A stretch of DNA of 62,440 nt, the filler included, from an uncultured Methanosarcinales archaeon (GTDB lineage: Archaea > Nanobdellota > Nanobdellia > Woesearchaeales > B54-G15): assembly GCA_964519225.1 (NCBI GenBank). It is 6 parts of 6 records of this genome, joined end to end, with 100 filler letters (N's around TTAATTAATTAA, not from the genome) between each part and the next. Parts side by side here need not be neighbours in the genome. Positions count along the whole stretch, not along the records: positions 1 to 14,083 come from CAZFJK010000021.1; 5 more parts are not named here. One strand, given 5' to 3'. Numbering within the stretch: the stretch's first letter is position 1; the number at the start of each line of letters is the position of its first letter. The notes below the pieces were generated by a model. That model was not told where the DNA came from. It ran no database searches and saw only the letters and a list, made by a program, of their open reading frames with translations. A program made the translations under genes and the position numbers. Below are positions 1 through 26,059 of this stretch, piece after piece.

Positions 1-65
1 TGCACGCTGAAAAAGAGGCATTTTTGTTCTGGAATGTAGAAGAGGTATAAAAGAATTTCTGGTTT

Positions 66-376
66 TGAGACTATAATGGGACTAAATTGGGACTAAGGTG
101 GGACTAACGTGGGACTAGTGTGAGACTAAATTATCGACGATAAGTCTCAATTTTGTGAGACTAATGTGAGACTTATGTGAGACTAAGTTGAGACTAAAGT
201 GAGACTATGTTAAAATAAGAGGGTTTTTCGTCGATAAAAAGATCTTTTTGGTCCTGTTCTAGTTTTTGGGACTAAAATGAGACTGTAGTGAGACTAACGT
301 GAGACTAAAATGGGACTAATTATCGACGATAAAACAGGAAAATTGAGACTAAAGTGAGACTAAGCTGAGACTAAAT
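66..376 (+). repeat. Non-coding array of 19 direct 11-bp repeats (TGRGACTANNN) in four blocks, separated by three 13-bp palindromes TTATCG(A/T)CGATAA
   Basis: Blocks start at 66 (6 copies), 156 (5), 267 (5) and 344 (3), with an exact 11-nt period inside each block. Palindromes at 131-143, 225-237 (one mismatch) and 320-332. One inverted copy at ~141-149. Confidence 0.95.
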
Positions 377-900
377 GATTGGGGAGAGGGAATAATGAAG
401 GCTTTTATTGTTAGGAGAAGTGAGTAAAAGCAAGGAGTAAAGAAGTTAAAGGTGAAGTTAAAGGTGAATGAGTAATGAGTTTGAGGTAAAGCGAAAGTGA
501 GTTTTGCAAAATTGAGTTTGGAGAATGAAATGGATCTGAAAAGGATGGGAAAGTGAGGGTTTACGGAGGAATTTCCAAGTCTTTAAGAATTATTTTCATT
601 ATAGAAAATAAATAAGTAAATGAAAAAGTGAGAGTTCGAGGAGAAGATGGTAGATTTGATAGGAAATTAAAATCAGGTTCATTTTTGAGAGTAATGAGTT
701 TGATTGATTAAAGATTATATTTTTCCATATTGAAAAATATAAAGAAAACGAAAAAGTGAGAGTTTGAGTAAGTAGATTATGAGCTGAATGGTTTTGGATT
801 TGGGTAAGAAAAGTAGCGGAGTAGTGGAGATAACAGTTAGGCATTATGCTATTTTGGTTATTTCTGGGTTATTCTTTTGGATTTTTAGGATAGGAAAGGT

Positions 901-1575
901 TTAAGTAAGAAAAGTGAGAGTTCGTAAGAAACGTAAGAGTTTATTTTCTGAGGGGAAAAGAATGGAAACACAGAGTTTCCCTCTTCTGAAATTTATATTT
1001 ACTCGTGATTTCTCGGCTATGTTACTAATACATCTTGAAGATTCCCTAAATATGTTGTTCATACGTAAAGTCCACTTGAGTCCGTGAGATGAGATTTTTT
1101 CTACAATTTTAGTAAGAGGGATTATTGAAATGGTTGTTCCTTTTACATTATTAAGGGTAAAGTCTTTCTTGTTCGGAAATATGATAAGTTCAGTTCCGAA
1201 TGGGATAATTATGCTAAAATATCGAGAATATTTCGATGCTAAAAAGAAATTAGTGATTGTTTGATCAAATCTTCCCCCAAAAGCTCCCACAATATAAACT
1301 AAAGAAGATTTCCTTTCTCTCGCTAAACTTAAAGCCAGTTCTCCATCTGTTTTATCTTTATCTTTTGGAAATCGATGGATTAATACTTCCTTCTGCGGAA
1401 GGCAGGATAAAGAATCTAAATCTCCAACTACTTCGTGTACTTTGATTTTGAAAGATTTTGCTTTAGCGAAACCGCCATCTGCGGCGATTATTAGCGATGA
1501 ATTTTTAGCTAAGAATTTGTATAATGCTTTAGAATTTTGCTTATAGTCCCCATTTAAAAATATAAGTGTTTTCAT
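901..1575 (-). CDS. thiN: Thiamine pyrophosphokinase
   Basis: Motifs LNG, IIAADGG, VGDLDS, KDKTDGELAL, GAFGGRFDQ, GLKW...ISN. Confidence 0.9.
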   Translation of the reverse strand: MKTLIFLNGDYKQNSKALYKFLAKNSSLIIAADGGFAKAKSFKIKVHEVVGDLDSLSCLPQKEVLIHRFPKDKDKTDGELALSLARERKSSLVYIVGAFGGRFDQTITNFFLASKYSRYFSIIIPFGTELIIFPNKKDFTLNNVKGTTISIIPLTKIVEKISSHGLKWTLRMNNIFRESSRCISNIAEKSRVNINFRRGKLCVSILFPSENKLLRFLRTLTFLT

Positions 1576-1665
1576 CTGTTTCTTAACTTAATTTTTGTAT
1601 AAAAAAGTTTGTTTTAGAAAAATCGAAAAATACATAATATTTTGTTTGCTCTTTTTAAAATTCAA

Positions 1666-2292
1666 ATGAGAAAGAAAGAACTTGCGATTTTTTTGTCGGG
1701 GTTGAGAGGATTTGCTGTGAGGAGGGAATCGCTGGAGCAGAGAGAAAGTGAAAGTGAGATTATTGCTGATGTGTTGTGGAAAGCCTATATGCTCGGAGAT
1801 ATTGAAGGTAAGATTATTGCTGATCTTGGTTGCGGCACGGGTATAATTGGAATAGGATGTTTGCTTCTTGGAGCTAAAAAGGTGTATTTTGTTGATATCG
1901 ACGAGGATGCGATTAAAGTTTTGAAAGAAAACCTTCGCAAACTTGAAGGAAGTTTGAGGAAGAAGGCTGTTATCATTTTAAAGGATGTTAATAAATTGAG
2001 CAGAAAGGATGTGAAAGGTGTTGAAGTTGTTATTCAAAATCCGCCTTTTGGTGTGAAGAAAAGGCTTGACAGGGTTTTCTTAGAAGTTGCCTTTAAGCTT
2101 GTGAATGTTGTTTATTCTTTTCATAGGCTTGACGTTGAAAGATTTGTGTATGCTTTTAGCAGGGATCATGGCTTTAGAGTAACGCATTTATGGAAATACA
2201 AATGGCCGATGAAGGCTGTTGCAAGAAAGCACAGGAAACGGATAAGATATTTACCTGTTGGCTGCTGGAGATTGGAAAGATTTTTAAAATAA
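1666..2292 (+). CDS. METTL5-like SAM-dependent RNA methyltransferase
   Basis: ADLGCGTG SAM motif and NPPFG catalytic motif. Start moved to ATG 1666. Confidence 0.85.
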   Translation: MRKKELAIFLSGLRGFAVRRESLEQRESESEIIADVLWKAYMLGDIEGKIIADLGCGTGIIGIGCLLLGAKKVYFVDIDEDAIKVLKENLRKLEGSLRKKAVIILKDVNKLSRKDVKGVEVVIQNPPFGVKKRLDRVFLEVAFKLVNVVYSFHRLDVERFVYAFSRDHGFRVTHLWKYKWPMKAVARKHRKRIRYLPVGCWRLERFLK

Positions 2293-2312
2293 AAGAAAAA
2301 GGTTAGGCTGAA

Positions 2313-2591
2313 ATGGAAGTCAAGATTGTTAAGGAAGAGAAGAATAAAATGATTATTGAGCTTCCGAAAGAAGGACACACTTTTCTAAATGCCCTGAAAG
2401 AAGAGCTGTGGAATGACAAACACGTCAAGGTTTCTGGATACAGGATAGATCATCCGCTTGTCGGCATTCCTAGATTGATAGTTGAAACTGATGGAAAAGA
2501 AACGCCAAAGAAAGCTTTGATTGCTGCTGCTGAAAGACTTAAAAAGCAAGGAAAGAAGTTCAAGGAATTGATCGGAAAGCTTAGGATTTAA
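2313..2591 (+). CDS. rpoL: RNA polymerase subunit Rpo11 (L)
   Basis: EGHTFLNALK...GYRIDHPL signature. Confidence 0.95.
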   Translation: MEVKIVKEEKNKMIIELPKEGHTFLNALKEELWNDKHVKVSGYRIDHPLVGIPRLIVETDGKETPKKALIAAAERLKKQGKKFKELIGKLRI

Positions 2592-2603
2592 TTTTAATTT
2601 AGA

Positions 2604-3212
2604 ATGAAAAAGTATAGCGTAGAAGAAGCAAAAGAATTGATTGCGCTGGCAAGAAAAGCAATTGAAGATTTCTATGTCGACAAGGATACTGAAGCAGAGA
2701 TTTCTGATGAAATAAAAGAGAAATATAGCGAGAAAAGAGGAGTTTTTGTAAGTATATATGTTGATGGAGAATTGCAGGGCTGTATTGGATTTGCCTATCC
2801 TGTTTTTCCTTTGTGGAAAGCAGTAATAAAAGCTGCTGTTGGGGCTGCTTTTGAGGATCCTAGGTTTCCGCCTTTGCTCAAAGAAAGCTATAGGAGATGC
2901 AGAATTGAACTGACGATACTGACTGAGCCTGAACCTATTGAAATTGAGGAGCCAGAAGATTATTTGAAAAAGATAAAGATAGGAAAGCATGGACTGATGG
3001 TAAAGGATGCTTTTGGAAGTGGTTTATTGCTGCCTCAGGTTGCTGTTGATGAGAAATGGAGCGTTGAAGAGTTTTTGAACTATACTTGTATGAAAGCCGG
3101 ATTGGATGCTGATTGCTGGCGTAACAAAAGAAGGAATGTTTATTGGTTTGAGGCGCAGGTTTTTAGCGAAAAAGATGGAAAGGTTGTTGAAAAACGCTTG
3201 GAGGTGAAATAA
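2604..3212 (+). CDS. AMMECR1-domain protein
   Basis: GVFVS, GCIG, AAFEDPRF, GLLLPQVA and C-KAG motifs. Confidence 0.9.
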   Translation: MKKYSVEEAKELIALARKAIEDFYVDKDTEAEISDEIKEKYSEKRGVFVSIYVDGELQGCIGFAYPVFPLWKAVIKAAVGAAFEDPRFPPLLKESYRRCRIELTILTEPEPIEIEEPEDYLKKIKIGKHGLMVKDAFGSGLLLPQVAVDEKWSVEEFLNYTCMKAGLDADCWRNKRRNVYWFEAQVFSEKDGKVVEKRLEVK

Positions 3213-3431
3213 ATGTTTTGGTTTGGTTGGACGGCTGGCTTCGGGATTGGCTTTTCTTTGTTGCTTGCTTTGGTTATGATATGGAGTATGATCTGGAAAG
3301 GTATAGCTTTGTGGAAGGCAGGAAGGAATGGCCAGCTTGGTTGGTTTGTGGTTTTGTTTATAATCAACACTGCAGGAATACTTGATATAATTTATTTGAT
3401 ATGGTTTCAGAAAAAGAAGCGGAAAAGATAA
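3213..3431 (+). CDS. Small membrane protein (DUF5652-like)
   Basis: WKGIALWKAGRNGQLGWF...NTAGILDIIY pattern; hydrophobic. Confidence 0.7.
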   Translation: MFWFGWTAGFGIGFSLLLALVMIWSMIWKGIALWKAGRNGQLGWFVVLFIINTAGILDIIYLIWFQKKKRKR

Positions 3432-3465
3432 AAATTTAAATATGATTTCTGGTGCCTAAGCGATA

Positions 3466-3963
3466 ATGTTTGTCAGAAAGAAAAAAATAAAGGGTAAAGA
3501 GTATGCCTATCTTGTTGAAAACAAATACATTAATGGCAGGGTAAAGCAGAAAGTTAAAAGATATCTTGGAAAGGTTTTCAAATTTGATAGGAGCGGTGAT
3601 TTTCCTGTTACGACGGTATTTGATAAAAGCCGGGTTGATGCGATAAAAGATTTGTTAAAAAAAGAGTTGATTTTAAGGGGGTTTAAAGTAAAAGGTGATA
3701 CATTAGAGCGTGAGAATGTTGTTGTTGATTTGAAGAAAGGCGAAGTTTACTTTAAAGGAAGAAAAGCATGCATAGAGCTGAATGAGGGTTTTCTTTGCGG
3801 CTATACGTTAAGAAAGCTTTATAGATTGGAAGATGGAGATGGCTATGCTGTGGCTAATGCTCTGCTCAGTGCTGGAATTAAGCTAAGCAAGGATGATTTT
3901 GTTAAGTTTTTTGAACGATATTATGGAGGTGAAGCTGATGAGCGCGAGCAAGCAGATCAATGA
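3466..3963 (+). CDS. Hypothetical protein with basic N-terminus
   Basis: ORF with upstream TTTAAATA TATA-like box and host-like codon usage. Confidence 0.65.
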   Translation: MFVRKKKIKGKEYAYLVENKYINGRVKQKVKRYLGKVFKFDRSGDFPVTTVFDKSRVDAIKDLLKKELILRGFKVKGDTLERENVVVDLKKGEVYFKGRKACIELNEGFLCGYTLRKLYRLEDGDGYAVANALLSAGIKLSKDDFVKFFERYYGGEADEREQADQ

Positions 3964-4666
3964 GATTAATCCAAAATGGCCTGTTCATGTTGGTATAATA
4001 CTTGATGGAAACAGGAGGTTTGCAAAGAGATTGATGCTCGAGCCATGGAAAGGGCATGAATACGGAAAGGAAAAGTTGAAGAAATTATTTGAGTGGTGCA
4101 AGGAATTTGGTGTTAGAGAATTGACTTTATATTGTTTTAGCATGCAAAACTTTAACAGGCCGAAGAGGGAATTTGATTATTTGATGAAGATTTTTATTGA
4201 TGCTGCAAATGAAGCGCTTGAAGATAAGAGAGTTCATGAAAATAAAATAAGGATAAGGGTGATTGGTAGAAAGCATTTGTTGCCGAAAGAAGTTCAGGAT
4301 GCTTTTACGCGACTTGAAGAAGCGACTAAAGATTATGATGAATATTTGATTAATCTTGCTATTGCTTACGGCGGAAGAGAGGAAATAATCGACGGGATTA
4401 AGAAACTTGCTGAACACGTGCGGCTTGGAAAGGTTAAAGTTGATGAGATAAATGAAGGCGTGTTTAAGGAGTATCTCTATCTTGCTGATGAACCCGATAT
4501 GATAATAAGAACCGGAGGTGAGCAGAGGACGAGCAATTTTCTTCTGTGGCAAAGTATCTACAGTGAATGGGTCTTTTTAAAAAAGACGTGGCCCGAGTTT
4601 GAGAAAGAGGATTTTGAATGGTGTTTGAATGAATATGCAAGGCGTGAGCGAAGGTTTGGAAGATGA
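3938..4666 (+). CDS. uppS: cis-Prenyltransferase (undecaprenyl-diphosphate synthase family)
   Basis: HVGIILDGNRR, YGGREEI, IIRTGGEQRTSNFLLWQ and RRFG motifs. SD GGAGGTGA before ATG 3938. Confidence 0.95.
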   Translation: MSASKQINEINPKWPVHVGIILDGNRRFAKRLMLEPWKGHEYGKEKLKKLFEWCKEFGVRELTLYCFSMQNFNRPKREFDYLMKIFIDAANEALEDKRVHENKIRIRVIGRKHLLPKEVQDAFTRLEEATKDYDEYLINLAIAYGGREEIIDGIKKLAEHVRLGKVKVDEINEGVFKEYLYLADEPDMIIRTGGEQRTSNFLLWQSIYSEWVFLKKTWPEFEKEDFEWCLNEYARRERRFGR

Positions 4667-5201
4667 ACAGCGTGAAAGTAAAAGCAGATGGTTCCTGAAG
4701 CTTATTCTTGCTGTGTTTCTTCTGCTTTTGATTGTTCTTTTTGTTGTTCCCTATTATGGCGTTAAGCTTGATCCCGAACCTGAAAGGATTATTTCGATTG
4801 AAGAAGCTCTGGAAGGAAGACGGTATGCTAAAGACCTGATAAAGTTTGTTGCTGATAAGGTTGTTGCAAATGCTTGCATGAGCGGGAATAAGGTTTGTCA
4901 TGCAAAAGCACTGTTTTATTTTGTAAGGGATAATTTCAAGTATGTGGCTGATCCGATCGGAAAAGAATATATTGAAAGGCCGGAGGAATTCCTGCTTGCT
5001 GGCGGCGGTGATTGTGAAAGCGGAAGTTTGTTTCTCGTTGCTTTGCTTGAAAGGGTTGGCATTAAAGCAGAGGTTGTTGCAAAGAGGGGGCATGCGTTTG
5101 TAAGGGCTTATTTGCCTGAAATATTAAAAAAATATAAGAAGGATGGTTATGTCTATCTTGATTGGACCTGCAAGCAATGCGGGTTTGGTGAGTTGAGGTA
5201 A
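4629..5201 (+). CDS. Membrane-anchored transglutaminase-like protein
   Basis: N-terminal TM helix; GDC...GHA...LDWT catalytic triad pattern. Start uncertain. Confidence 0.75.
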   Translation: MNMQGVSEGLEDEQRESKSRWFLKLILAVFLLLLIVLFVVPYYGVKLDPEPERIISIEEALEGRRYAKDLIKFVADKVVANACMSGNKVCHAKALFYFVRDNFKYVADPIGKEYIERPEEFLLAGGGDCESGSLFLVALLERVGIKAEVVAKRGHAFVRAYLPEILKKYKKDGYVYLDWTCKQCGFGELR

Positions 5202-5202
5202 A

Positions 5203-5526
5203 ATGAAAGACGAGGGAAAGGAGCATAAACGCGTTTGGATTTATGAAAAATTAGATAGAATTTGGGAAGAATATCTCTGGGCAGGAATTCATATGGTTGA
5301 AGCGGTAAAAGCAAAGGCATGGGATCAATTTTGGGAATATTTGGATTACGCAGATTGTTTGGAAGAATTGCTTAAGGAGTTTTCTATTGATGAGCACGGT
5401 GATTTTTTTCAAAAGAGATTTGGAGATGTTTGCGAGAAGGTTTTTGGAAAAAACTATGCGCGTTTGGCTGATGGGCTTTTAAAGGAATATTTAAGAGTAA
5501 GCGGAATGTTTCCTGAGCTATTGTGA
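5203..5526 (+). CDS. Hypothetical protein
   Basis: ORF directly after the previous stop, with SD GAGG. Confidence 0.6.
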   Translation: MKDEGKEHKRVWIYEKLDRIWEEYLWAGIHMVEAVKAKAWDQFWEYLDYADCLEELLKEFSIDEHGDFFQKRFGDVCEKVFGKNYARLADGLLKEYLRVSGMFPELL

Positions 5527-5577
5527 ATGTTGTGAATGATAACATTTTTAAAATAGACGGTTTTTTTGCTTGGAAAA

Positions 5578-5745
5578 ATGGAACTGATCTGCAATTCATG
5601 CAAGACAAGGATAGCGAATCAGCCTGGAAGCGTTGTTTTTCCATGCCCAAAGTGCGGAAAGTATCAGATAGTAAGATGCTATAGATGTAGAAGGGCTGCT
5701 GTGAAGTATAGGTGCCCTGAATGCGGATTTGAAGGACCTAACTAA
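5578..5745 (+). CDS. Small Zn-ribbon protein (DUF1610/HVO_2753-like), absent from ORF track
   Basis: Translated by hand: MELICNSCKTRIANQPGSVVFPCPKCGKYQIVRCYRCRRAAVKYRCPECGFEGPN. Four CxxC motifs; sits in its usual position upstream of EF-1beta. Confidence 0.9.
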   Translation: MELICNSCKTRIANQPGSVVFPCPKCGKYQIVRCYRCRRAAVKYRCPECGFEGPN

Positions 5746-5759
5746 TGAGGTGTTTTTGA

Positions 5760-6035
5760 ATGGCAGATGTTGTTGTTACCCTGAAGGTTATGCCAAAGGG
5801 TGTTGATGTGGATTTGAATGCGCTGGCTGAGAAGGTCAAGGAAAAGATTTCTGCTTTTGGCGGTGAAGTCGGAAAGGTTGAAGAAAAACCCGTTGCTTTT
5901 GGGCTGAAGAGTTTGATGATCTATTTTGTTATGCCTGAGGAAAAAGGAAGTACAGAGCCTTTGGAGAAGGAGATCGAAATGTTTGATGATGTTGAAAGCG
6001 TTGATGTTGTTGATGTTAGGCGGGCTGTAGGTTGA
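5760..6035 (+). CDS. ef1b: Elongation factor 1-beta
   Basis: KVMP...PVAFGLKSL motif; SD GAGGTG. Confidence 0.95.
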   Translation: MADVVVTLKVMPKGVDVDLNALAEKVKEKISAFGGEVGKVEEKPVAFGLKSLMIYFVMPEEKGSTEPLEKEIEMFDDVESVDVVDVRRAVG

Positions 6036-6042
6036 TTTTGAT

Positions 6043-7086
6043 TTATTTTGTTAATTGTTTTATTGTTTTTATTATGTCTTCTTCTTTTGCTGTTGTTCTT
6101 ATGCCGTAATCGCTGAAATGAGTTCTTGCTGCTTTGAAACCTGCTTTTTTTAGATTTGCCATCAGAGATGTGAGCTTTGGTATTTGAAGTTGATTCTTTT
6201 TGCAAAGAGCATGGTACTGCATGAATGGAAAATTCAGTATTTTGCATTCTTCTGCTATTCTTTTAAGCATGGTTGCTTCGTGCATTTTCGCTATGGCTTT
6301 GGCAAGTGCATTATTCCAGAGAGGGCCTGTCCAGAGAGGACCGATTTTATCTTCTATTGTTTTGTGGTACGCTAAAAGCCTGTCTGTTTTTGTTGCACCT
6401 TTTTTGCAAATGAAGAATGCGCGATAGTAGTGCTGTTTGTAATATGAATATATCGGCGTTAGGGCTTTTTCGTACTGCGCTGCAATGAGTTGGACTTTTC
6501 TTATTAGAATGCGGAGAGCAAATTCATGAGCTGAAGGATGTTTTGCTGCGGGCTTTGCCCAGTATTTTCTGAGGCATGTTTTTGGATATGTTCCTGCTAG
6601 CGGAGCTGTGTCTGTTGCTGTTACTGCGAGTATTGCATTTCGGCTGAGGGCTTTTATTGCAGCGTCGAGGAATGGATTTGGACTGCCAAAGGGATCTATG
6701 TCAATGTAATCAAAACCTTTGTTTTCAATGAGGAATAAGTTTGCATCTTGATTAAAGATCTTTGCTTTGGTTTTGGGTATTTTGTTTAAAGCGAGATTCT
6801 TTTTTATTGCTTGGGTGGCTTTTTTGTTAATGTCGTTGAAGAGAATTTCTTTTACCGCTTGATTTGCTTCAAGGATTAATCTTATACCGCGAATTCCTGA
6901 GCCTGCCAATGGAAGTGCTATCCTGAACTTCCTTTTTTCTTTATTTGCGATGTAGGAAACGATCAGAACAGAGATTGTTCTGTTCAGAGCCATTGCAGGA
7001 TTGTAGAAAACCGGCATGTCTTTTGTCGGAATCTGTTTTGTTCTTGGAATATATGTTTTTGCTTTTCCTTCTATGATTTGGGGCAT
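6043..7086 (-). CDS. trm1: tRNA (guanine26-N2)-dimethyltransferase
   Basis: VFYNPAM.LNR, GSGIRGIR, DIDPFGSP, TATD and GPLWTGPL motifs. Confidence 0.92.
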   Translation of the reverse strand: MPQIIEGKAKTYIPRTKQIPTKDMPVFYNPAMALNRTISVLIVSYIANKEKRKFRIALPLAGSGIRGIRLILEANQAVKEILFNDINKKATQAIKKNLALNKIPKTKAKIFNQDANLFLIENKGFDYIDIDPFGSPNPFLDAAIKALSRNAILAVTATDTAPLAGTYPKTCLRKYWAKPAAKHPSAHEFALRILIRKVQLIAAQYEKALTPIYSYYKQHYYRAFFICKKGATKTDRLLAYHKTIEDKIGPLWTGPLWNNALAKAIAKMHEATMLKRIAEECKILNFPFMQYHALCKKNQLQIPKLTSLMANLKKAGFKAARTHFSDYGIRTTAKEEDIIKTIKQLTK

Positions 7087-7141
7087 TTTCTTTTAAGAAG
7101 AAATGATAAAAAATAAAACTTGTGGTTTTGTATGAAAAGTT

Positions 7142-7492
7142 ATGAATGCAAAGTTGTGTTTAAAGGAAATTGGGAAATTGGGCGGGATAGAAAAGATAGT
7201 TTTGCATTATAAATGGTACTTGCACATGAATGAGAAGGAACGCGCAAGGGATTATCTAATATTACGAATTGAGCATGAACACGGCGTAGTTGAATTCGGC
7301 TTTAGGCCGACTCGATTACGCGATGAAACAGCTGTTAGAGAATATCTGCTTGGCTTTTTAAAGAAGACTTTGCAAAAGAGGAGCATAAAAAGAAAATTAA
7401 GGAAAGAAGGTTCGCTCATTTGTTTATATCAGAATGTTCCTATTTACTCCAAGCGCTTCGATGAGTTTTTGCGTCAATACTTGAATGGTTGA
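7142..7492 (+). CDS. Hypothetical protein
   Basis: 116-aa ORF; no recognised motif. Confidence 0.5.
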   Translation: MNAKLCLKEIGKLGGIEKIVLHYKWYLHMNEKERARDYLILRIEHEHGVVEFGFRPTRLRDETAVREYLLGFLKKTLQKRSIKRKLRKEGSLICLYQNVPIYSKRFDEFLRQYLNG

Positions 7493-8008
7493 ATCGTTTT
7501 CTATTGTTATGTCTGCCATTTGCATGCATTTTTTGACTTGCTGACCATGTGAGGATTCGTCTTTGCCGAGATCTCTTTCATCGATTTTAATGAATTCCTC
7601 CCAAGTTTTTGGATCTGAAGGTCTATTGCGAGAAAGCATGAATTGAAAGCGTTTTTCTCTTGGTGCTGTAATGCTTATCAAAATGAAGTTTTCATTAAAT
7701 GCTGTTTTGAATGCCATTACTTCAGCTGGATTTCTGATGCCGTCGATGACAAAGCGATTGTTTTGGGTATGTTTGACTTTTTCTATGATTCTGTCTGCAA
7801 GAACAGAGTTTCCAAATTTTAGACGGAGTTCATTTCCGATGTCTTGGAGCTGTTTTGTTGTATAGTTCGCTAAGCCGCGATTTCTTGCTTCTTCGCGGAC
7901 TATGTCCGAAAGGGAAAAATAAGTAAAGCCTTTTGATTTAAGGAAATCTGCAATGACGCCTTTGCCGCTGGCTTTTGGTCCGGTTAGGCCGATAATAAGC
8001 TTATGCAT
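7424..8008 (-). CDS. P-loop nucleotide kinase (dephospho-CoA/dNMP-kinase-like)
   Basis: IGLTGPKASGKG Walker A, VIDGIRNPAE, ADITIEND. Confidence 0.8.
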   Translation of the reverse strand: MHKLIIGLTGPKASGKGVIADFLKSKGFTYFSLSDIVREEARNRGLANYTTKQLQDIGNELRLKFGNSVLADRIIEKVKHTQNNRFVIDGIRNPAEVMAFKTAFNENFILISITAPREKRFQFMLSRNRPSDPKTWEEFIKIDERDLGKDESSHGQQVKKCMQMADITIENDSTIQVLTQKLIEALGVNRNILI

Positions 8009-8225
8009 TTTTATTATTGCATCCGAGACAATAAAGGTATCTTTTATAACCGAGGATTTTCTTCTGGATTTGCTTGTTTTTTACAAGTTTTGATAGAGTC
8101 TTAAGAAAGTTTTGGTGTGTTGGTGCTTTGTTGAATTTTTGTTTAAAGAGAAGCTCGAGCTCTTTTGCTGTTAACCAACGCTTTTTGTTCTTTTCCATTA
8201 ATTCAAGAATGTCAAACCAATACAT
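8001..8225 (-). CDS. Small winged-helix-like protein
   Basis: Basic 74-aa ORF (WLTAKEL...LSKLVKNKQI...YLY), coupled to both neighbours. Confidence 0.5.
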   Translation of the reverse strand: MYWFDILELMEKNKKRWLTAKELELLFKQKFNKAPTHQNFLKTLSKLVKNKQIQKKILGYKRYLYCLGCNNKNA

Positions 8226-8227
8226 TT

Positions 8228-8893
8228 TCAGCTGGGATATTTTTCTATCTGTTGTCTAAGTTTTTCTAATTTTTGTTCGTCGTTTAAAAAAGATTTGATA
8301 GTACACATATTTGCTGGGGATGGATGCGGAATGGCTACGTAAGGATAGTCACGATAAAATGATTGAAAAAAATTCTCTACATGCTTTCCTAAAGTAAGGA
8401 AAAGCTTTACGCTGTTTTCAGGAAGTTCTCTTTTGAATCTGATTGTTGCGCATATAAGGGTTTGTGGAAAATATCTCGGGTCAAAGGGCTTTGGTTTGTT
8501 GTTTATTTTTGCCGGGCATTTGATAAGAGAGGTTAGATGTACTTTTTCTTCTAAAGATTCTGGTTGAAAGATTTGTTCTGAATCATTGAAGCCGAGTATT
8601 TGCGGAATATATAATGCTTCAAGCATTTCTGCAAGATTCCTTCTCAGTCTTCCAGAAAAAGCTGCTCTTGATAATGCTTCTACTGGATGTGTGCCTTGAT
8701 TTACCAATTCCTGATAAGTTTTAACTTGCTGCGGTCCTGGTGAGAAGCCGATTATAGCAATGATCGGGTTTTTTGGTGAGTTGCCGATCGGACAATAAGT
8801 TAAAGTGAGCTTTTTTCCTCGATTATTGTATACTTCGAGCTCTTCAAAAGGTTTTGTAGTGCACAGATAACACTGAGGTATTGACAGGCTCAT
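8228..8893 (-). CDS. Uracil-DNA glycosylase superfamily protein
   Basis: IIGFSPG (motif A-like), AF.G, TSLIKCP, LG and PHPSPAN (motif B). Confidence 0.75.
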   Translation of the reverse strand: MSLSIPQCYLCTTKPFEELEVYNNRGKKLTLTYCPIGNSPKNPIIAIIGFSPGPQQVKTYQELVNQGTHPVEALSRAAFSGRLRRNLAEMLEALYIPQILGFNDSEQIFQPESLEEKVHLTSLIKCPAKINNKPKPFDPRYFPQTLICATIRFKRELPENSVKLFLTLGKHVENFFQSFYRDYPYVAIPHPSPANMCTIKSFLNDEQKLEKLRQQIEKYPS

Positions 8894-8945
8894 AGGAAGA
8901 TTATTTTAGGAAAGATTTTAAAATTTATTGGCAAAATGGAGAGTT

Positions 8946-10706
8946 ATGCAGATCAGAAAAGTTATTTGTACTGTGATGGGGCATGTTGATCACGGAAAGA
9001 CGACGATTTTAGATAGAATTAGGAATACTGCTGTTGCTAAAAGCGAACCCGGTTTGATAACGCAGGCTATTGGGGTAAGCATAATTCCCATTGAAGCTGT
9101 TAGGAAGATTTGCGGAAAACTGCTTGATGCGCTGAAAGTAAAGATAACTGTTCCTGGATTGCTTTTTATTGATACGCCTGGTCATGCTGCCTTTACTGCT
9201 TTGCGAAGGCGGGGAGGCAGCTTAGCTGACATAGCTATTTTGGTTGTTGATATAAATGAAGGAAGCATGCCGCAAACAGTTGAGTGTATTGAAATCCTGA
9301 AGGCTTTTAAGACGCCGTTTGTTGTTGCTGCAAATAAGATTGATTTGATTCCCGGATGGAAAAAGCAAAGCGATTTGTTGCTTGAAAATATTGAGAAGCA
9401 GGACGCCAAAGTGATTGGTGAATTTGAAGGAAAGCTATACGAGCTTGTTGCAAAGCTGAACGAGTTTGGTTTTAATGCGGACAGGTTTGACAGGGTAAGG
9501 GATTATACGAGAGAAGTAGCTATAGTTCCGATAAGTGCTGCAACTGGTGAAGGTGTTGCTGAGCTTTTGATGGTATTGATCGGTTTAGCGCAGCGCTATC
9601 TTGAGGAAAGTTTAAAATGCGATCTTGATGGGCCTGCGAAAGGAACTGTTCTTGAGGTAAAAGAAGAGAAAGGAGTAGGTATTACTGTTGATGCGGTAAT
9701 TTACGACGGTCATTTGAAGATTAATGATACTTTGCTTATAGCAGGACTTGACGATGTTATTGTTACGAAGGTCAGGGCTTTGCTTGAGCCTGCACCCTTG
9801 GCTGAGCTTAGGCTTGGAAAAAAGTTCCAGAGGGTTAAGGAAGTTAAAGCTGCAACTGGTGTAAAGATCGTTGCACCGATGCTTGAGAGGGCTGTTGCAG
9901 GAATGCCGTTGAGGAGCTGTAAGCCTGATGAGGTTGATGTTGTTAAAGAGGAGTTGATGAAAGAAGTTGAAGAGGTTTTGATTGAAACAGAAAAGGTTGG
10001 TGTTATAGTGAAGGCTGATTCTCTCGGCAGCTTGGAAGCGGTTGCTAAGTTGCTTAGAGAGAAAGGCATTCCTATTAAAAGGGGAAGCGTTGGAGAGATA
10101 AGCAGGAAAGATGTTGCTGAAGCTATAGCTAATCTCGGAGTTGATCCTCTTTATGGAGTTATTCTCGGATTCAATGTTGGTGTTGCAAAGGATGTGAGTG
10201 TTCCTAGTCAGATTAAGGTTATAACTTCTGATATTATCTATAAGCTGATTGAAAAGCTAGAGGAATGGCAGGAAGCTGTCAGGAAAGCTGAAGAGGAAAA
10301 GGAATTTGCAAAATTGGTTAGGCCGTGCAAGGTTGAGATTTTGAGGGGTTATGTTTTCAGGCAGAGCAATCCTGCTATAGTCGGTGTTAGTGTCGTTGAA
10401 GGTGTGCTAAGGCCTAATACGCCGATGATGCGGGTTGATGGAAAAAGCGTTGGATATGTGAAGGGTATTCAAAGTGAAGGACAGAATGTAGAGAAGGCTG
10501 AAAAAGGAAAACAGGTTGCTATTTCTTTGCCTGATGTTATTGTTGGAAGGCAAGTCAAAGAGGGCGACATTTTGCTGAGCGATGTTCCTGAAGATGATTT
10601 TAGAAAGTTGAAGCGATTAAAGAAATTTTTGAGTAAGGAAGAGATAGAGCTTTTGAAGGAGATCGCGCAAATAAAGAGAAAGAAAAATCCTGTTTGGGGG
10701 ATATGA
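8946..10706 (+). CDS. infB: Translation initiation factor aIF5B (IF-2)
   Basis: GHVDHGKTT, GLITQAIG, DTPGH, NKID, KADSLGSLEA and FRQSNPAIVGV motifs. Confidence 0.97.
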   Translation: MQIRKVICTVMGHVDHGKTTILDRIRNTAVAKSEPGLITQAIGVSIIPIEAVRKICGKLLDALKVKITVPGLLFIDTPGHAAFTALRRRGGSLADIAILVVDINEGSMPQTVECIEILKAFKTPFVVAANKIDLIPGWKKQSDLLLENIEKQDAKVIGEFEGKLYELVAKLNEFGFNADRFDRVRDYTREVAIVPISAATGEGVAELLMVLIGLAQRYLEESLKCDLDGPAKGTVLEVKEEKGVGITVDAVIYDGHLKINDTLLIAGLDDVIVTKVRALLEPAPLAELRLGKKFQRVKEVKAATGVKIVAPMLERAVAGMPLRSCKPDEVDVVKEELMKEVEEVLIETEKVGVIVKADSLGSLEAVAKLLREKGIPIKRGSVGEISRKDVAEAIANLGVDPLYGVILGFNVGVAKDVSVPSQIKVITSDIIYKLIEKLEEWQEAVRKAEEEKEFAKLVRPCKVEILRGYVFRQSNPAIVGVSVVEGVLRPNTPMMRVDGKSVGYVKGIQSEGQNVEKAEKGKQVAISLPDVIVGRQVKEGDILLSDVPEDDFRKLKRLKKFLSKEEIELLKEIAQIKRKKNPVWGI

Positions 10707-10895
10707 AAAGATAAAATAAGCAGTTCTGTTAACTTATCTCCGAGCCAAGGATTTTTCCGCCTAATCGCTGTTAAATGCCTAGACGAGCGTTAGCGAGGAG
10801 AACGCAATGGGTCAAGGATTTGCGTAACAAATCCGAAGAAGTTGAGAATTTGACTTTAGAAGAAACTTTAAATATATTAGATCTAATTATTTTTT

Positions 10896-11219
10896 ATGAA
10901 TAACTTATTTGAGTCTTTCAAGAAAAGATGGCACAAAAAATCTGAAGAATTTAAAAAACTCAAATTAGATGGGCAAGCTTGTATGAGTATTTACAAGATG
11001 TTTCTTAAAGAATATTTGTATTTGATGCGATATGTTAAGAAAGAATCTATACAAAATTTTTATCTTGAAAGAGAACAACTAGCAAATGATGTTAAAGAAG
11101 CTTTAGACGTAGCATTTTGTAATCATAAAAGATTTCTACGTAGGACTAGTTGGTGGTATAGATTATTTTCTGGGAACAAAAAATTAGATTTTAGTATGTT
11201 CAAATTTCCAAAAACTTGA
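10896..11219 (+). CDS. Hypothetical protein, AT-rich, flanked by inverted repeats
   Basis: 107-aa ORF with TTTAAATA ~20 nt upstream. Confidence 0.55.
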   Translation: MNNLFESFKKRWHKKSEEFKKLKLDGQACMSIYKMFLKEYLYLMRYVKKESIQNFYLEREQLANDVKEALDVAFCNHKRFLRRTSWWYRLFSGNKKLDFSMFKFPKT

Positions 11220-11373
11220 ATGCCGAATTCTCAATTGCATTTAACTCGTGTTATGCGATCGAACAGAGCGAGGTTTGGGAATATAGCGAAGCGGAATAAT
11301 GCACGTTGTGTACTCGGGTTGGGAATAGAAAAAAATAGAAAGATTTAATAAATTTGAATATTTTTTAAACAAA

Positions 11374-11514
11374 ATGAAAAGTGAAATGGTAACTATTCCT
11401 AAGGCGGAATATGAAGAATTAAAAATGAAAGCTGAAATAGATACGGAATTCTTAAAACAACTAATCGAAAGTTTAAAAGATATTAAATACAAAAGATTGA
11501 AAAGAATTAAGTAG
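11374..11514 (+). CDS. Putative small antitoxin (46 aa), absent from ORF track
   Basis: MKSEMVTIPKAEYEELKMKAEIDTEFLKQLIESLKDIKYKRLKRIK; resembles the short partners of RelE toxins; convergent with the RelE-like gene. Confidence 0.65.
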   Translation: MKSEMVTIPKAEYEELKMKAEIDTEFLKQLIESLKDIKYKRLKRIK

Positions 11515-11821
11515 ATTTCAATAATTCTTTTATTTCTTCGCCAAAAGTCCTAAGCAATAGCCTAATGGAATTTATAACTCTTTGTTGATCCTTCTTTGTG
11601 CTTATAGCCACAAAAACAACGGATTCTTCTTTTTCGTAAATTATAAAATAAACTCGGTAATTTTTAAATTTCTTTTCTCTGAACCATGGAAAATCTATAG
11701 GTTTTCCGACATATGGATTTTTAACTATTTGATTTTCTATTTTGTCCAGCCAATTTTTGAATGTGGGGTTTATTTTTCTTAATTCTTTTTCGAATCTGTT
11801 TGTATGAAAAACTTTGTACAT
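11507..11821 (-). CDS. RelE/ParE-family toxin
   Basis: MYKVFHT..FEKE...NPYVGKP..FREKK...RVYF..Y...V.FVAIS.KKDQ pattern. Confidence 0.75.
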   Translation of the reverse strand: MYKVFHTNRFEKELRKINPTFKNWLDKIENQIVKNPYVGKPIDFPWFREKKFKNYRVYFIIYEKEESVVFVAISTKKDQQRVINSIRLLLRTFGEEIKELLKST

Positions 11822-12091
11822 GAAATTTTAGATAAAAACTTGCTATAAAATTTTTACTTTTCGTAGGTCGCATAAACTTAATGGACATAACTGATTGGAC
11901 TTCATTAAATTTTTTTCATTTGCGGAAAAGTTAGCATCACACAAAAGTTTACTTAACTATTTATGAAGGAATGGATGTGAGACTTAATTTTTAAACTGTT
12001 AAAATATTCGGATGCAAAAGATTATCTTGTATGTCCGAAAAATTTTTATCAAATTTTCTGATTTAGAAGATCTAAAACATTGCCTCAGAAA

Positions 12092-12571
12092 ATGATGTTG
12101 AAGTTTCTTCGGAAACGAGAAGTAAAAAGATTTGATCGCTTGATTGAAAAGCAATGGGGAAGCAGGTTTAGGTTGGCTGATTATGGTATTCTGTTTAAGG
12201 AAAAAACAAGGAAGATTTATATTGTGAGTAGAGACATTGATAGGATTACTGGAAAAGAGAGATTGTTTAGGATTGATTCTGTGGGACTTTATTTCGGTGA
12301 GCTAACGAAATGGAATTTGCTTAGGTTAAGCATAGAAGGAAGTCAGCTTGTTGGAAAAAGTGCAAAGAAGAATGTTGTTGAATTTAATGCAAGGCAAATC
12401 AAGGAATGGATAAAAGGAGAAGACGTTGAAGTTGATGGTTTTGATGGAGAAGGTTTTGCTTTGATAAAACATGAAAGCGACTTCTATGGCTGTGGAAAGG
12501 TGCTGAAAAAGAATGGAAAGGTGTTTATTTTGAACTTTGTTCCGAAAGCGAGAAGGATTAAAAAGATTTGA
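12092..12571 (+). CDS. NIP7/RsmF-C-like PUA-domain protein
   Basis: GLYFGE...RLSIEGSQLVG...W.KGED...GCGK...NFVPKARR. Confidence 0.7.
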   Translation: MMLKFLRKREVKRFDRLIEKQWGSRFRLADYGILFKEKTRKIYIVSRDIDRITGKERLFRIDSVGLYFGELTKWNLLRLSIEGSQLVGKSAKKNVVEFNARQIKEWIKGEDVEVDGFDGEGFALIKHESDFYGCGKVLKKNGKVFILNFVPKARRIKKI

Positions 12572-12802
12572 TTACGGCTTTCTTTCTGCCTCTTTGAGAA
12601 CGTCCTCTATTGGCTTCTTCTCTTTTGCTTTTTTTATTTCTGCTTCTAGATCAACGCCAAGGTCTTTGAGTGCTTTAAGATGGGCTTGAATGAGTTGTTC
12701 AACGATAGCAACAAGTCTGACGAGTTCTGCTCTTTCTTTGACGAGCGTTGACAATGCTCCTTTATGAAAGCCGATTTGTTCTTCTTTTGTTTGTTCTGAC
12801 AT
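12572..12802 (-). CDS. Conserved hypothetical coiled-coil protein
   Basis: EEQIGFHKGALSTL.KER.EL...H.KALKDLGV; start set at ATG 12802. Confidence 0.65.
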   Translation of the reverse strand: MSEQTKEEQIGFHKGALSTLVKERAELVRLVAIVEQLIQAHLKALKDLGVDLEAEIKKAKEKKPIEDVLKEAERKP

Positions 12803-12856
12803 TTTAGATTGTGTGGGACAGAAATAGTTATAAAGTTTTTGAAAATTTTTTTGATT

Positions 12857-13825
12857 ATGGCTGTTCTTGTTACTGGCGGTGCTGGATATATAGGAAGTCA
12901 TGTTGTTAGAGCTCTTTGGGATAAGGGCAGGAAAATAGTTGTTGTGGATCGTTTTTCTCCTGAAAAAAGCGGGGCAATTCTAAAATGGGCTAGATTTTAT
13001 AAAGGTGATTTTGGCGATGCGTCGCTTTTAGAGAAGATTTTTTCTGAAAATGAAATCGATGCTGTTATGCACTTTGCTGCTTACATAAGGGTTGATGAAA
13101 GCATGGAAAAGCCGTTGATGTATTTTGAAAATAATGTTGCTAAGACGATCGTTCTTTTAAGGGAAATGCAAAGACACAATGTTGAGCGGTTTGTTTTTTC
13201 TTCAACGTGTGCTGTGTATGGAACGCCTAAGTATTTGCCTTTGGATGAAAGGCATCCTTTGAATCCTGAAAGTGTTTACGGAATGACGAAGATGATGGTT
13301 GAAGATATTTTGAAGAGTTTGTCCGCTGCTGGAAAGCTTATGTTTGTTAGCTTGAGGTATTTCAATGCCGCGGGGGCTGATTGGAAAAGTGGGATAGGTT
13401 ACTATAAGAAGTTACACTTGATTCCAAAGATATTGGATGTTGTACTTGAAAAAGAACCTGAGCTGAAAGTTTTTGGAACAGACTATGACACAAGGGACGG
13501 AACATGTATAAGGGATTATATTCATGTTCTTGATCTAGCTGATGCGCATGTTCTCGCGCTTGAATATTTGGAAAATAGCGGAAGAAGTGATTTCTTTAAT
13601 CTTGGAAGTGGAAAGGGCTACACTGTTAAGGAAGTGATTAAAGCAGTTGAAGAAGTATGCGGAAAGAAGATTCCTTTTGCTGAAGCTGGCAGACGGCAAG
13701 GTGATGTTAGTGCATTGTTTGCTGATAACAGAAAAGCAAGAGCTGTTTTAGGATGGGAGCCAAAGAGAGAGCTGAAAGAGATTATTTCATCGGCTTGGGA
13801 ATGGCATAGGAGGGTTTTTGCGTGA
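12857..13825 (+). CDS. galE: UDP-glucose 4-epimerase
   Basis: VTGGAGYIGSH, YxxxK (YGMTK), LRYFNAAGA and GTCIRDYIHV motifs. Confidence 0.95.
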   Translation: MAVLVTGGAGYIGSHVVRALWDKGRKIVVVDRFSPEKSGAILKWARFYKGDFGDASLLEKIFSENEIDAVMHFAAYIRVDESMEKPLMYFENNVAKTIVLLREMQRHNVERFVFSSTCAVYGTPKYLPLDERHPLNPESVYGMTKMMVEDILKSLSAAGKLMFVSLRYFNAAGADWKSGIGYYKKLHLIPKILDVVLEKEPELKVFGTDYDTRDGTCIRDYIHVLDLADAHVLALEYLENSGRSDFFNLGSGKGYTVKEVIKAVEEVCGKKIPFAEAGRRQGDVSALFADNRKARAVLGWEPKRELKEIISSAWEWHRRVFA

Positions 13826-14083
13826 GTTCATTAGCAAGACAATATATTGCTATGTCATTTTAATTTCTGCTTTACGAATTTGGTGGAGCCGATCTCTAAT
13901 TGCGAACCACATATTCACTTTGTTGTTCTCTTTCAATGTAAAATTGTAAAGCAAATTAGTTCTTCCATCGAAAGTGATATTAAGAAATAACGGACTCTAA
14001 GCATTTATTTAGTTTTTCTACATAAATTTCAAATAATCTTTCGTCGTAAGTTTTCTTTTTCATAGGGACGTGATGTGCTTCTT

Positions 14084-25347: not shown

Positions 25348-25519
25348 GCGTAAAAAGCAGCGATTACTTTTTTTATTTTTTTTGGTGCTAGGCTACACAC
25401 TTTAGATCACATACTACACTTATTAATACCTTCTCTAGAAAATTACATTCCTCAACTCAATAAATTATTCTTGAAAAGTAGCTTCAACTCCAATCAATCG
25501 TTTTATTTCACTTTTTATT

Positions 25520-25619
25520 NNNNNNNNNNNNNNNNNNNNNNNNNNNNNNNNNNNNNNNNNNNNTTAATTAATTAANNNNNNNNNNNNNNNNNNNNNNNNN
25601 NNNNNNNNNNNNNNNNNNN
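25520..25619. other. Artificial contig linker
   Basis: N44-TTAATTAATTAA-N44. Confidence 0.98.
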
Positions 25620-26059
25620 AGAGCAGCAGTCCGCAAGTCTTTTCCTACTGAACGAGCATAATCCATTGTAGCTTGAACTGCCTTTTCCATTAATTCAGGT
25701 GCGATATTGAATCTCAGAAACAGTGTCTCGATTGACTCAATTGTTTCGTCGCCATAGGTGGTCGTCATCTGTAGGGCAGAAGCCAAATCGGTCAGCTTTT
25801 TATAAGTTTCTTCCGAATATGCCCCTACATTCTTAAGAGCTTCAGCAAGTGCAAAGTCTGCCTTTTCCTGCTCCATTGCCTCTTCGGTTGTACTCTTGAG
25901 CCACTTGATTACTTCATAAGAGCCAAAAGCTAAGCCGAAAGCACCCGCCAGCTTTTTCGCAGTCTTAAGCAATCCACCGAGTCTATTGTCAATGCGTGAC
26001 AGGTCTTTCGACATTTTGTCTACAAGAGCAAAAACTACATTTATCCTTTTTTCAGCCAT
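25620..26059 (-). CDS. Phage tail tape-measure-like protein, N-terminal part (truncated)
   Basis: Ala/Gly-rich N-terminus, EQEKA...LA.AL...LASALQ.TTTYGDE...A.MDYA...G.DL.TAA; SD GGAGG. Confidence 0.7.

Follow-up and report, generated by a model that had tools for sequence, protein, structure and literature searches.

A phased array of 11-nt direct repeats beside a gene for a coiled-coil/winged-helix protein on an archaeal chromosome: a candidate docking platform

Described direct-repeat sites and the archaeal locus

The stretch of DNA analysed here, referred to as the window (62,440 nt), opens with contig C21 (positions 1-14083) of the genome of an uncultured archaeon (assembly GCA_964519225.1), designated G000, and the rest of the window consists of other contigs joined via runs of N. 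At positions 66-376 it contains an array of short direct repeats with a period of 11 nt, adjacent to a gene for a protein, designated wHTH1, with a predicted coiled coil and a winged helix-turn-helix (wHTH) domain. Array and gene are considered here together, as a binding site and its candidate binding protein. Genome G000 comprises 869 kb in 53 contigs, with a GC content of 36.5% and a completeness of 97%. It contains the archaeal genes for RpoL, aEF-1beta, aIF5B and Trm1 and a single Orc1/Cdc6 gene, no match to DnaA was obtained in it, and the source names of the wHTH1 homologues include 'Candidatus Woesearchaeota archaeon'; on these grounds, the organism is regarded here as a DPANN archaeon of the Woesearchaeota type. 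A congeneric genome, G001, served as the reference for comparison.

Sites of comparable layout have been described for several DNA-binding proteins. For plasmid R388, the stbS site of the StbA protein is described as 9-bp repeats, separated by 2-bp spacers and grouped in two sets of five, at the promoter of the stbA gene itself, and no plasmid NTPase (nucleoside triphosphatase) is reported for this system. The array resembles stbS in that direct repeats of an 11-bp period are arranged in sets at the promoter of the gene for the presumed binding protein. StbA is a small helix-turn-helix (HTH) protein, described both as an autoregulator and as a centromere-binding protein without a linked NTPase, and no NTPase is linked to the array either. 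However, stbS is located on a bacterial plasmid and has 10 repeats, whereas the array, with 19 repeats, belongs to an archaeal chromosome and is divided by palindromes into four blocks. StbA further has a tri-helical HTH at its N-terminus and lacks a long coiled coil such as that predicted for wHTH1, and it has a regulon of further operators, while none were found for the array in G000. The two systems are not related in sequence.

KfrA of plasmid RA3 combines an HTH domain with a long coiled coil and binds to an operator at its own promoter that is made up of five direct repeats of 9 bp, with an alpha-helical partner, KfrC, encoded nearby; an accessory role in stable maintenance is described for it, alongside a ParA/ParB system. 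With wHTH1 it shares the coiled-coil type of DNA-binding protein, the direct repeats at its own promoter and the second alpha-helical protein encoded nearby. However, the HTH of KfrA is N-terminal and is followed by a tail of about 300 amino acids, whereas in wHTH1 the coiled coil comes first and the wHTH domain last, and wHTH1 gave no match to the KfrA family of Pfam. A wHTH domain, a coiled coil and an anchor have been described for pSK1 Par, for RacA of B. subtilis and for RocS of S. pneumoniae, which segregate or tether DNA without a dedicated NTPase (PMC11500499 for Par). RacA binds to repetitive centromere-like sites. The winged helix joined to a long coiled coil is common to these three proteins and to the AlphaFold model of wHTH1. 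In contrast, Par, RacA and RocS are described with a MerR-type wHTH at the N-terminus and an anchor at the C-terminus (DUF536, an amphipathic helix or DivIVA binding), and among 24 members of the wHTH1 family no Pfam match was obtained to a MerR-type wHTH or to a DUF536/amphipathic-helix or DivIVA-binding anchor.

The repeats of the centromere parC of plasmid R1 are 11 bp long. At tubC, blocks of direct repeats are found upstream of tubR, the gene for the winged-helix protein TubR, and two kinds of iterons can be present; for parC, the title of the reference names 'ten direct repeats flanking the promoter'. The nucleoprotein complexes on parC and tubC are described as acting as repressors as well. 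In the initial annotation of the window, made from the sequence alone, the array was likened to parC-type centromeres, a comparison which is apt in architecture; in all these cases direct repeats in blocks lie upstream of the gene for the binding protein, around its promoter. However, ParMRC and TubZRC depend on a motor, ParM or TubZ, whose gene is part of the operon and which is present in none of the 27 array loci described below. ParR is a ribbon-helix-helix (RHH) protein, and both systems are those of plasmids or phages, whereas wHTH1 is a coiled-coil and winged-helix protein encoded on a chromosome.

A unit of heptamer and 4-nt spacer is also described for transcriptional regulators. SARP regulators bind to a heptamer followed by 4 nt (11 bp), with winged-helix monomers placed head-to-tail along a single face of the DNA, and 11-nt units have been reported for PhoP. 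The array shares the direct repeats, the spacer and the 11-bp unit with the SARP and OmpR/PhoP sites. However, SARP and OmpR sites comprise two to three units at many promoters and are recognised by a Trans_reg_C domain, whereas here 19 units are present at one locus; no match to the OmpR-type Trans_reg_C domain was obtained in the 24 wHTH1 family members. No paper describing the array or the wHTH1 family was found in the open-access full text. What appears to be new here is the pairing, on an archaeal chromosome, of a direct-repeat array with the gene for its putative binding protein, an uncharacterised coiled-coil/winged-helix protein.

The array, its conservation and the adjacent wHTH1 gene

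The array consists of 19 GRGACT heptamers, and a heptamer scan confirmed the 19 direct copies at an exact 11-nt period in four blocks (6+5+5+3) that had been noticed initially (Table 1). The fuller motif proposed at that time, TGRGACTA, fits 17 of the 19 copies, while those at 168 and 279 end in ..ACTT and ..ACTG, respectively. In the whole window, TGRGACTA occurs 18 times, compared to 2.68 occurrences expected from shuffles (maximum 7, with 0 of 100 shuffles reaching 18). Three palindromes are placed between the blocks, with centres at 137, 231 and 326 and spacings of 94 and 95 nt, as had been stated; the outer two are perfect, while the middle one is imperfect. Across all 53 contigs of G000, the array and the perfect palindrome are each found at this locus only, and no second pair of heptamers 11 or 22 nt apart was detected elsewhere in the 869-kb assembly. 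The array lies in a non-coding region of about 880 nt, and no open reading frame (ORF) of at least 50 amino acids overlaps 66-376 on either strand, in agreement with the view that the 11-nt period is not a coding repeat.

Table 1. Features of the window at the array and in the adjoining region
Feature	Position	Strand	Remarks
wHTH1 gene, 5' end (first 7 codons)	1-22	-	ATG at 20-22; remainder on the minus strand of C12, at its end (25242-25901)
TATA-like box TTTTATA	46-52	-	about 25 nt upstream of the wHTH1 ATG; read from the sequence; identical in G001
Block 1, six 11-nt units (TGRGACTAA + 2 variable nt)	66-128	+	heptamer scan; GRGACT starts 67, 78, 89, 100, 111, 122
Perfect palindrome TTATCGACGATAA	131-143	.	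one substitution in G001 (TTGTCGACGATAA)
Single inverted heptamer AGTCTCA	143-149		after the first palindrome
Block 2, five units	156-207	+	2-nt offset relative to block 1; GRGACT starts 157, 168, 179, 190, 201
Imperfect palindrome TTTTCGTCGATAA	225-237	.	one mismatch from the consensus of the initial annotation; identical in G001
Block 3, five units	267-318	+	heptamer scan; GRGACT starts 268, 279, 290, 301, 312
Perfect palindrome TTATCGACGATAA	320-332	.	identical in G001
Block 4, three units	344-375	+	same register as block 3, whose last unit is 33 nt (3 x 11) away; GRGACT starts 345, 356, 367
Module 1: TTATTTTC-N6-GAAAATAA, A/T-rich TATA-like tract, AAGTGAGAGTT (626-636)	586-642	+	spacer ATTATA
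Module 2: ATATTTTTC-N6-GAAAAATAT, TATA-like tract, AAGTGAGAGTT (754-764)	714-770	+	spacer CATATT
Thiamin pyrophosphokinase ORF	901-1575	-	last ~23 codons overlap module 3
Module 3: AAGTGAGAGTT (912-922)	905-925	+	within the 3' tail of the thiamin pyrophosphokinase ORF, which is convergent

Over its 311 nt, the array could be aligned between G000 and G001 with zero indels. Substitutions were found at 1 of 114 positions of the heptamer core with its preceding T and at 1 of 39 positions of the palindromes, while the inter-block filler was changed at 26 of 66 positions (Fisher test of core versus filler, p = 2e-12). The R position was changed in 5 of 19 copies, the eighth position in 4 of 19, and the spacers at 7 of 35 positions. 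Downstream of the array (377-590), 90 of 214 aligned positions differ between the two genomes, with insertions in addition. As judged from this comparison, the array is under purifying selection.

The array begins only 66 nt from the end of C21, with which the window starts. The contig break falls inside the wHTH1 gene and outside the repeats, and by comparison with G001, C12 and C21 abut with about 2 nt missing. A 4591-nt contig of a public run covers window positions 1-1700 with 10 substitutions and with indels only at 894 and 1601; the length of the array is unchanged in this independent contig. From a second sample of the same study, identical pieces were obtained over 1-176, 217-452 and 1-301. 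In the runs identified, the coverage of the organism is low, at about 4-9x, and it is represented by contigs only. In G001, the whole locus is located mid-contig. The collapsed or misassembled repeat considered in the initial annotation is clearly not the case, and the array is real.

Three consecutive units (GRGACT-N5 x3) were identified in 32 of the 401 genomes of the order, a count which takes in G207 and G132, both flagged unpublished, compared to 2 of 401 for the same pattern reversed as a control. Two of the 32, G015 and G162, were dropped, as no gene accompanies their repeats, which could well have arisen by chance or from coding sequence. The neighbouring genes were clustered within 8 kb on either side of 27 loci, with the flagged genomes excluded. 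Directly beside the array, a wHTH1 homologue is encoded in 27 of 27 loci, and it is the only neighbour common to all of them. In 26 of these the gene is divergent, so that the repeats point the same way with respect to it; in G033 the gene is inverted. A gene for a second coiled-coil/wHTH protein, designated wHTH2, comes next in 17 of the loci. On the other flank of the array, a methyltransferase and RpoL are each encoded in 14 of 27 loci, and a XerA recombinase gene is present at most 4.5 kb from the array in 11. While the downstream neighbours vary between families, the pair of gene and array is constant. The lack of conservation in relatives that the initial annotation had named as a refuting outcome is clearly not the case.

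Among 11 further genomes without the strict GRGACT pattern, an 11-nt array with variant heptamers is present upstream of wHTH1 in 9. The variants are TGGGAAT in G002, G019, G024 and G012, TGAGACA in G028, and mixtures in G010, G018, G039 and G040, and boxes similar to TCGACGA occur between the blocks of variant arrays. On the sequences compared, TGRGA(C/A)(T/A), repeated every 11 nt, is the core that stays constant throughout the order. The largest arrays are those of G000 (19 heptamers) and G001 (18), with 4-14 at the other loci. A link of the TCGACGA box to wHTH2 was considered and rejected: the box is found in 10 of 17 loci with wHTH2 and in 2 of 10 without, which is too weak and confounded by phylogeny.

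The remaining 218 codons of wHTH1 are located at the end of C12, where tblastn places residues 9-226 with 90% identity. The protein comprises 226 amino acids in G001, where the gene is intact, and about 228 in G000. Its AlphaFold model (24 homologues; mean predicted local distance difference test score 77) contains helices at 8-118 and 124-151, followed by the wHTH domain at 154-218. No curated family was identified for wHTH1, and only weak winged-helix matches were obtained, to FUR in 11 and to PadR in 4 of the 24 members. A Foldseek search of the PDB with the model returned generic winged helices only, with nothing at E<=1e-3, and a sequence-profile search of the PDB gave coiled-coil noise only. 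In the wHTH1 alignment, the region of the recognition helix, LCSKS.FYR, is invariant. At the N-terminus a short conserved MWxFxKK, an aromatic part followed by a basic one, is present at the end of the coiled coil that is far from the DNA-binding domain. This peptide could serve for tethering or interaction and is the only candidate for an anchor. A profile search of 1.84 billion proteins resulted in 224 representative clusters at E<=1e-30; those among the matches listed (150 of 224) have 141-411 amino acids and include no ATPase-sized fusions. At E<=1e-10, the family is present in 155 of the 401 genomes of the order, 11 flagged genomes included.

The genes for wHTH1, wHTH2, a 117-amino-acid protein and XerA are co-directional, with gaps of 3-125 nt in G001, and look like an operon (C12 23281-25901 and window 1-22 in G000; locus L016, 6653-9250, in G001). 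In this gene series, wHTH2 is encoded next after wHTH1, and the 117-amino-acid protein belongs to no known family. XerA, the archaeal chromosome-dimer recombinase, is encoded three genes from the array (NCBIfam XerA_Arch, 248 bits, cut-off 220). The TATA-like box in front of wHTH1 is preceded by a purine-rich stretch resembling a transcription factor B recognition element (BRE) and would function as a promoter element, implying that the wHTH1 mRNA is leaderless or nearly so. The array begins 13 nt upstream of this BRE/TATA, and TATA-like boxes are present between ATG and array in the other loci viewed, too. A scan for bacterial sigma-70 promoters, a model which is not applicable to an archaeon, gave nothing above the shuffle level.

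Possible roles of the array

The most likely explanation is that the array is a docking platform of the adjacent wHTH1 protein, with an autoregulatory and possibly also a structural function, centromere-like or anchoring; as a whole, this proposal is held tentatively, at slightly short of even chances. Its parts differ in strength. Binding of wHTH1 to the array is very likely, and autoregulation of its own operon by the resulting complex is probable, because the array starts 13 nt from the wHTH1 BRE/TATA. A role in segregation or anchoring is possible, at somewhat less than even chances. A function beyond autoregulation is suggested because there is one locus per genome, with up to 19 sites, kept across an archaeal order, and also because no regulon was found, the units are kept at a strictly conserved spacing, and the locus shows an association with XerA and Orc1.

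In the mechanism envisaged, each unit of conserved heptamer and short variable spacer would receive one wHTH domain, so that neighbouring domains would follow each other head-to-tail along nearly a single face of the DNA. Through their coiled coils, the wHTH1 protomers would be paired or bundled, and a polar filament of protein and DNA, divided into four blocks, would result. The palindromes of the TCGACGA type that separate the blocks would be distinct sites for a dimeric factor, for which wHTH2 is a candidate by weak inference. The complex would feed back on the wHTH1 operon. At the same time, the array may be a centromere-like or chromosome-anchoring platform of the kind that works without an NTPase, as in pSK1 Par, RacA, RocS, StbA/stbS and KfrA, and the wHTH1 filament might tether the single chromosome via the conserved tip of the coiled coil to a cell structure, for instance the membrane or the site of division. 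A link between the cell cycle and the expression or assembly of the filament could be provided by an Orc1 box in the array of one family and by XerA in the operon of others. In its most specific form, a kinetochore-like site of an NTPase-independent chromosome anchoring or segregation system specific to Woesearchaeota-type DPANN archaea, the proposal is rather doubtful. The initial annotation had inferred a two-protein nucleoprotein site serving replication initiation or segregation. Of this, the selected array, the second element between the blocks and the two adjoining genes for candidate DNA-binding proteins fit, and a centromere-like role is possibly retained, one without a linked NTPase, while the replication role is not supported by the loci compared.

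Several observations weigh against a docking platform with a structural role. The link of wHTH1 to the array is one of guilt by association. The 24 members scanned gave no match to DUF536, KfrA or TubR, and the domain order of wHTH1 is reversed compared to RacA, RocS, Par and KfrA. Among the 27 loci, no gene for ParA/SegA, ParM, TubZ, Rep, RHH or Orc proteins was found near the array, so that no motor NTPase is at hand, and the partner genes expected in the initial annotation (cdc6/orc1, rep, parA/segA or RHH) are absent; in G000, ParA/MinD-like genes are restricted to contigs C2 and C13. In G014 and G017, two of the 11 further genomes mentioned above, wHTH1 has no adjoining array. Most families have only 4-14 heptamers, a size which fits a plain operator, and in archaea a position upstream of BRE/TATA is more typical of activation than of repression. 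Finally, the recognition helix CSKA.FYRY is paired with GAGACT and CSKS.FYR(I/L) with GGGACT, a split that follows clades, while GGGACT-type and some GGGAAT-type genomes have the same recognition-helix motif and the covariation is not clean. Covariation of protein and motif was therefore rejected as independent evidence, on account of the clade-following split and of the helix shared across heptamer types.

A simpler explanation is that the array is an operator or upstream activating array only, with wHTH1 an ordinary autoregulated transcription factor of no structural role. The repeats would then tune the genes for wHTH1, wHTH2, the 117-amino-acid protein and XerA, and perhaps the divergent methyltransferase-rpoL side, too. 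This fits the position of the array next to the wHTH1 BRE/TATA, the modest arrays of most families and the absence of a linked NTPase; moreover, SARP/PhoP-type regulators are described as using the 7+4 geometry purely for transcription, and KfrA and StbA are described as repressors as well. However, the genome contains no regulon and no second paired site, and 19 sites in 310 bp with blocks, inter-block boxes and zero indels between species exceed what autoregulation needs. In addition, gene and array remain together where the genes further downstream differ from family to family. As the entire explanation, an operator is rather unlikely.

A replication origin or accessory site was also considered, with the repeats as iterons for a non-Orc initiator (wHTH1 in the manner of WhiP or a plasmid Rep) or as an Orc1-coupled element. 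The phasing of the repeats resembles that of iterons, the non-coding region extends over about 880 nt, XerA is encoded nearby, and the inverted-repeat and A-rich part of modules 1 and 2 (Table 1) resembles a segment of the unwinding region adjacent to orc1 on contig C3. As in an archaeal oriC, repeated short elements are found in a long intergenic region, and in one family, designated f119 (G119, G199, G257, G305 and G339; loci L050-L054 and L102-L105), all without the wHTH2 gene, a canonical origin recognition box (ORB), composed of a mini-ORB and a G-string, is located between two GAGACT blocks in 5 of 5 genomes. However, the heptamer itself is not an ORB, in agreement with the initial annotation, no pair of ORBs flanks an unwinding element, and the array is not beside orc1. 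A whole-genome regex scan, with the ORB consensus and with a pattern derived from the f119 loci themselves, found no ORB in the array or in C21 1-1000. Instead, three canonical ORBs are located on C3 at 17.6 kb, upstream of tbp-mcm. The only orc1/cdc6 gene (a single Cdc6_C match) is on C3 as well, and next to it, at 30.05-30.4 kb, ORB-like elements in both orientations, weaker than those at 17.6 kb, flank an A/T-rich stretch. A segment similar to modules 1 and 2 is present at C3 ~30,195-30,240, in the A/T-rich core of this orc1-adjacent region.

In relatives, the distance from wHTH1 to orc1 is about 25 kb in G257 and G305 and 280-360 kb in G017, G086 and G099 (very large or single contigs), and in G016, G236 and G253 orc1 is on a different contig, so that array and orc1 stand in no constant relation; the initiation role proposed in the initial annotation is not upheld by these positions. 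In f119, where orc1 is about 25 kb from the array whenever both are on the same contig, the embedded ORB suggests an input of Orc1 into the locus rather than an origin function, because in G199 and G305 the ORB next to orc1 is a site of its own. In wHTH1, searches of Pfam and NCBIfam identified no domain of an ATPase, of helicase loading or of a Rep protein, and for a plasmid-type iteron origin, no Rep gene of a known family is adjacent and wHTH1 has one wHTH domain, not a tandem. The GC skew, for which a sign inversion had been anticipated, does not change sign across C12 and C21 (19 of 19 windows positive), and the 138-kb contig of G016 shows no switch at its array; this test carries little weight, because a sign change is missing at the canonical orc1/ORB locus on C3 as well (30 of 30 windows positive). 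The options are an active origin at another place or a different cause of the skew. The strand GC skew of G000 is strong, with an absolute contig mean of about 0.12-0.37 in most contigs of at least 10 kb and with one sign for up to 80 kb, and gene direction explains it only in part. The combination named as refuting in the initial annotation, a missing skew inversion together with the absence of neighbouring initiator or partition genes, is what was observed. Taken together, a replication origin is not supported by the loci compared and is improbable.

An RNA-level element, in which transcribed repeats would act as a protein sponge or give rise to a processed repeat RNA, is very improbable: it would suit a long non-coding region with strongly conserved short motifs, but several other loci combine copies of both orientations (forward/inverted 9/5, 5/5 and 11/6, among others), which indicates recognition of double-stranded DNA rather than of RNA. 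The strict 11-nt phasing corresponds to the helical repeat of DNA, the motif is tied to a gene for a DNA-binding protein, and Rfam gave no match over the array region at the gathering threshold and, up to E=5, one row of a microRNA family at chance level. The possibility that the array is an artefact of assembly or a neutral microsatellite at the end of a contig has next to no probability and was refuted, in spite of the closeness of the array to the end of C21, by the break within the neighbouring gene, the array of the same length in the 4591-nt contig, the mid-contig copy in G001 and a substitution pattern of purifying selection.

Further conserved elements and significance

Beyond the array, at 586-925, there is a second conserved element, with the word AAGTGAGAGTT in three modules. 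These are its only three exact copies in the whole of G000, with weaker ones near 497 and 550. In module 1, 44 of the 50 positions at 591-640 are identical to G001, while the flanks diverge. Modules 1 and 2 open with an inverted repeat (591-612 and 717-740) with arms of 8-9 bp and a 6-bp spacer, followed by an A-rich tract, and the overlap of module 3 with the thiamin pyrophosphokinase ORF is nearly identical in G001 (1 difference in 100 nt). The geometry of the inverted repeats recalls a Xer recombination site, and XerA is encoded three genes away. TTTTC-N6-GAAAA was rejected as a general dif-like element, since it is clear only in G000, G001 and L100/G051 and weak in L096/G144.

In many other families, AAGTGAGAGTT is found between the array and the methyltransferase gene, often 4-9 nt before its start codon, and related words are also present within the methyltransferase coding sequence. 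In this genus, the thiamin pyrophosphokinase gene separates the modules from the methyltransferase gene, while the two are adjacent in other families. The word AAGTGAGnG was identified in 15 of 17 loci with the wHTH2 gene and in 0 of 10 without; it could be the site of wHTH2, or the distribution could reflect shared ancestry.

Two observations concern other parts of the genome. A 104-amino-acid ORF on the minus strand of the window, at 11507-11821, gave a match of 31.4 bits (cut-off 23) to ParE, a toxin family of the type II toxin-antitoxin systems. The 28-kb contig C10 is the sole contig with sign changes of the GC skew, which track three co-directional gene blocks (+, -, +), and its gene set is virus- or mobile-element-like by eye.

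The segregation and organisation of chromosomes are poorly understood in archaea and essentially unexplored in DPANN archaea with their tiny genomes. The locus offers a defined pair, one unique and strongly selected array and one uncharacterised protein family, conserved across an order, which is suited to binding, structural and plasmid-stability experiments without cultivation. If the array were an operator only, it would be an unusually large and phased case of tandem winged-helix binding in archaea. If it were centromere-like, segregation of the NTPase-less kind would reach beyond bacterial plasmids and the chromosomes of Firmicutes to those of archaea, and as an anchoring or segregation system it would be the first counterpart in archaea of RacA, RocS or pSK1 Par.

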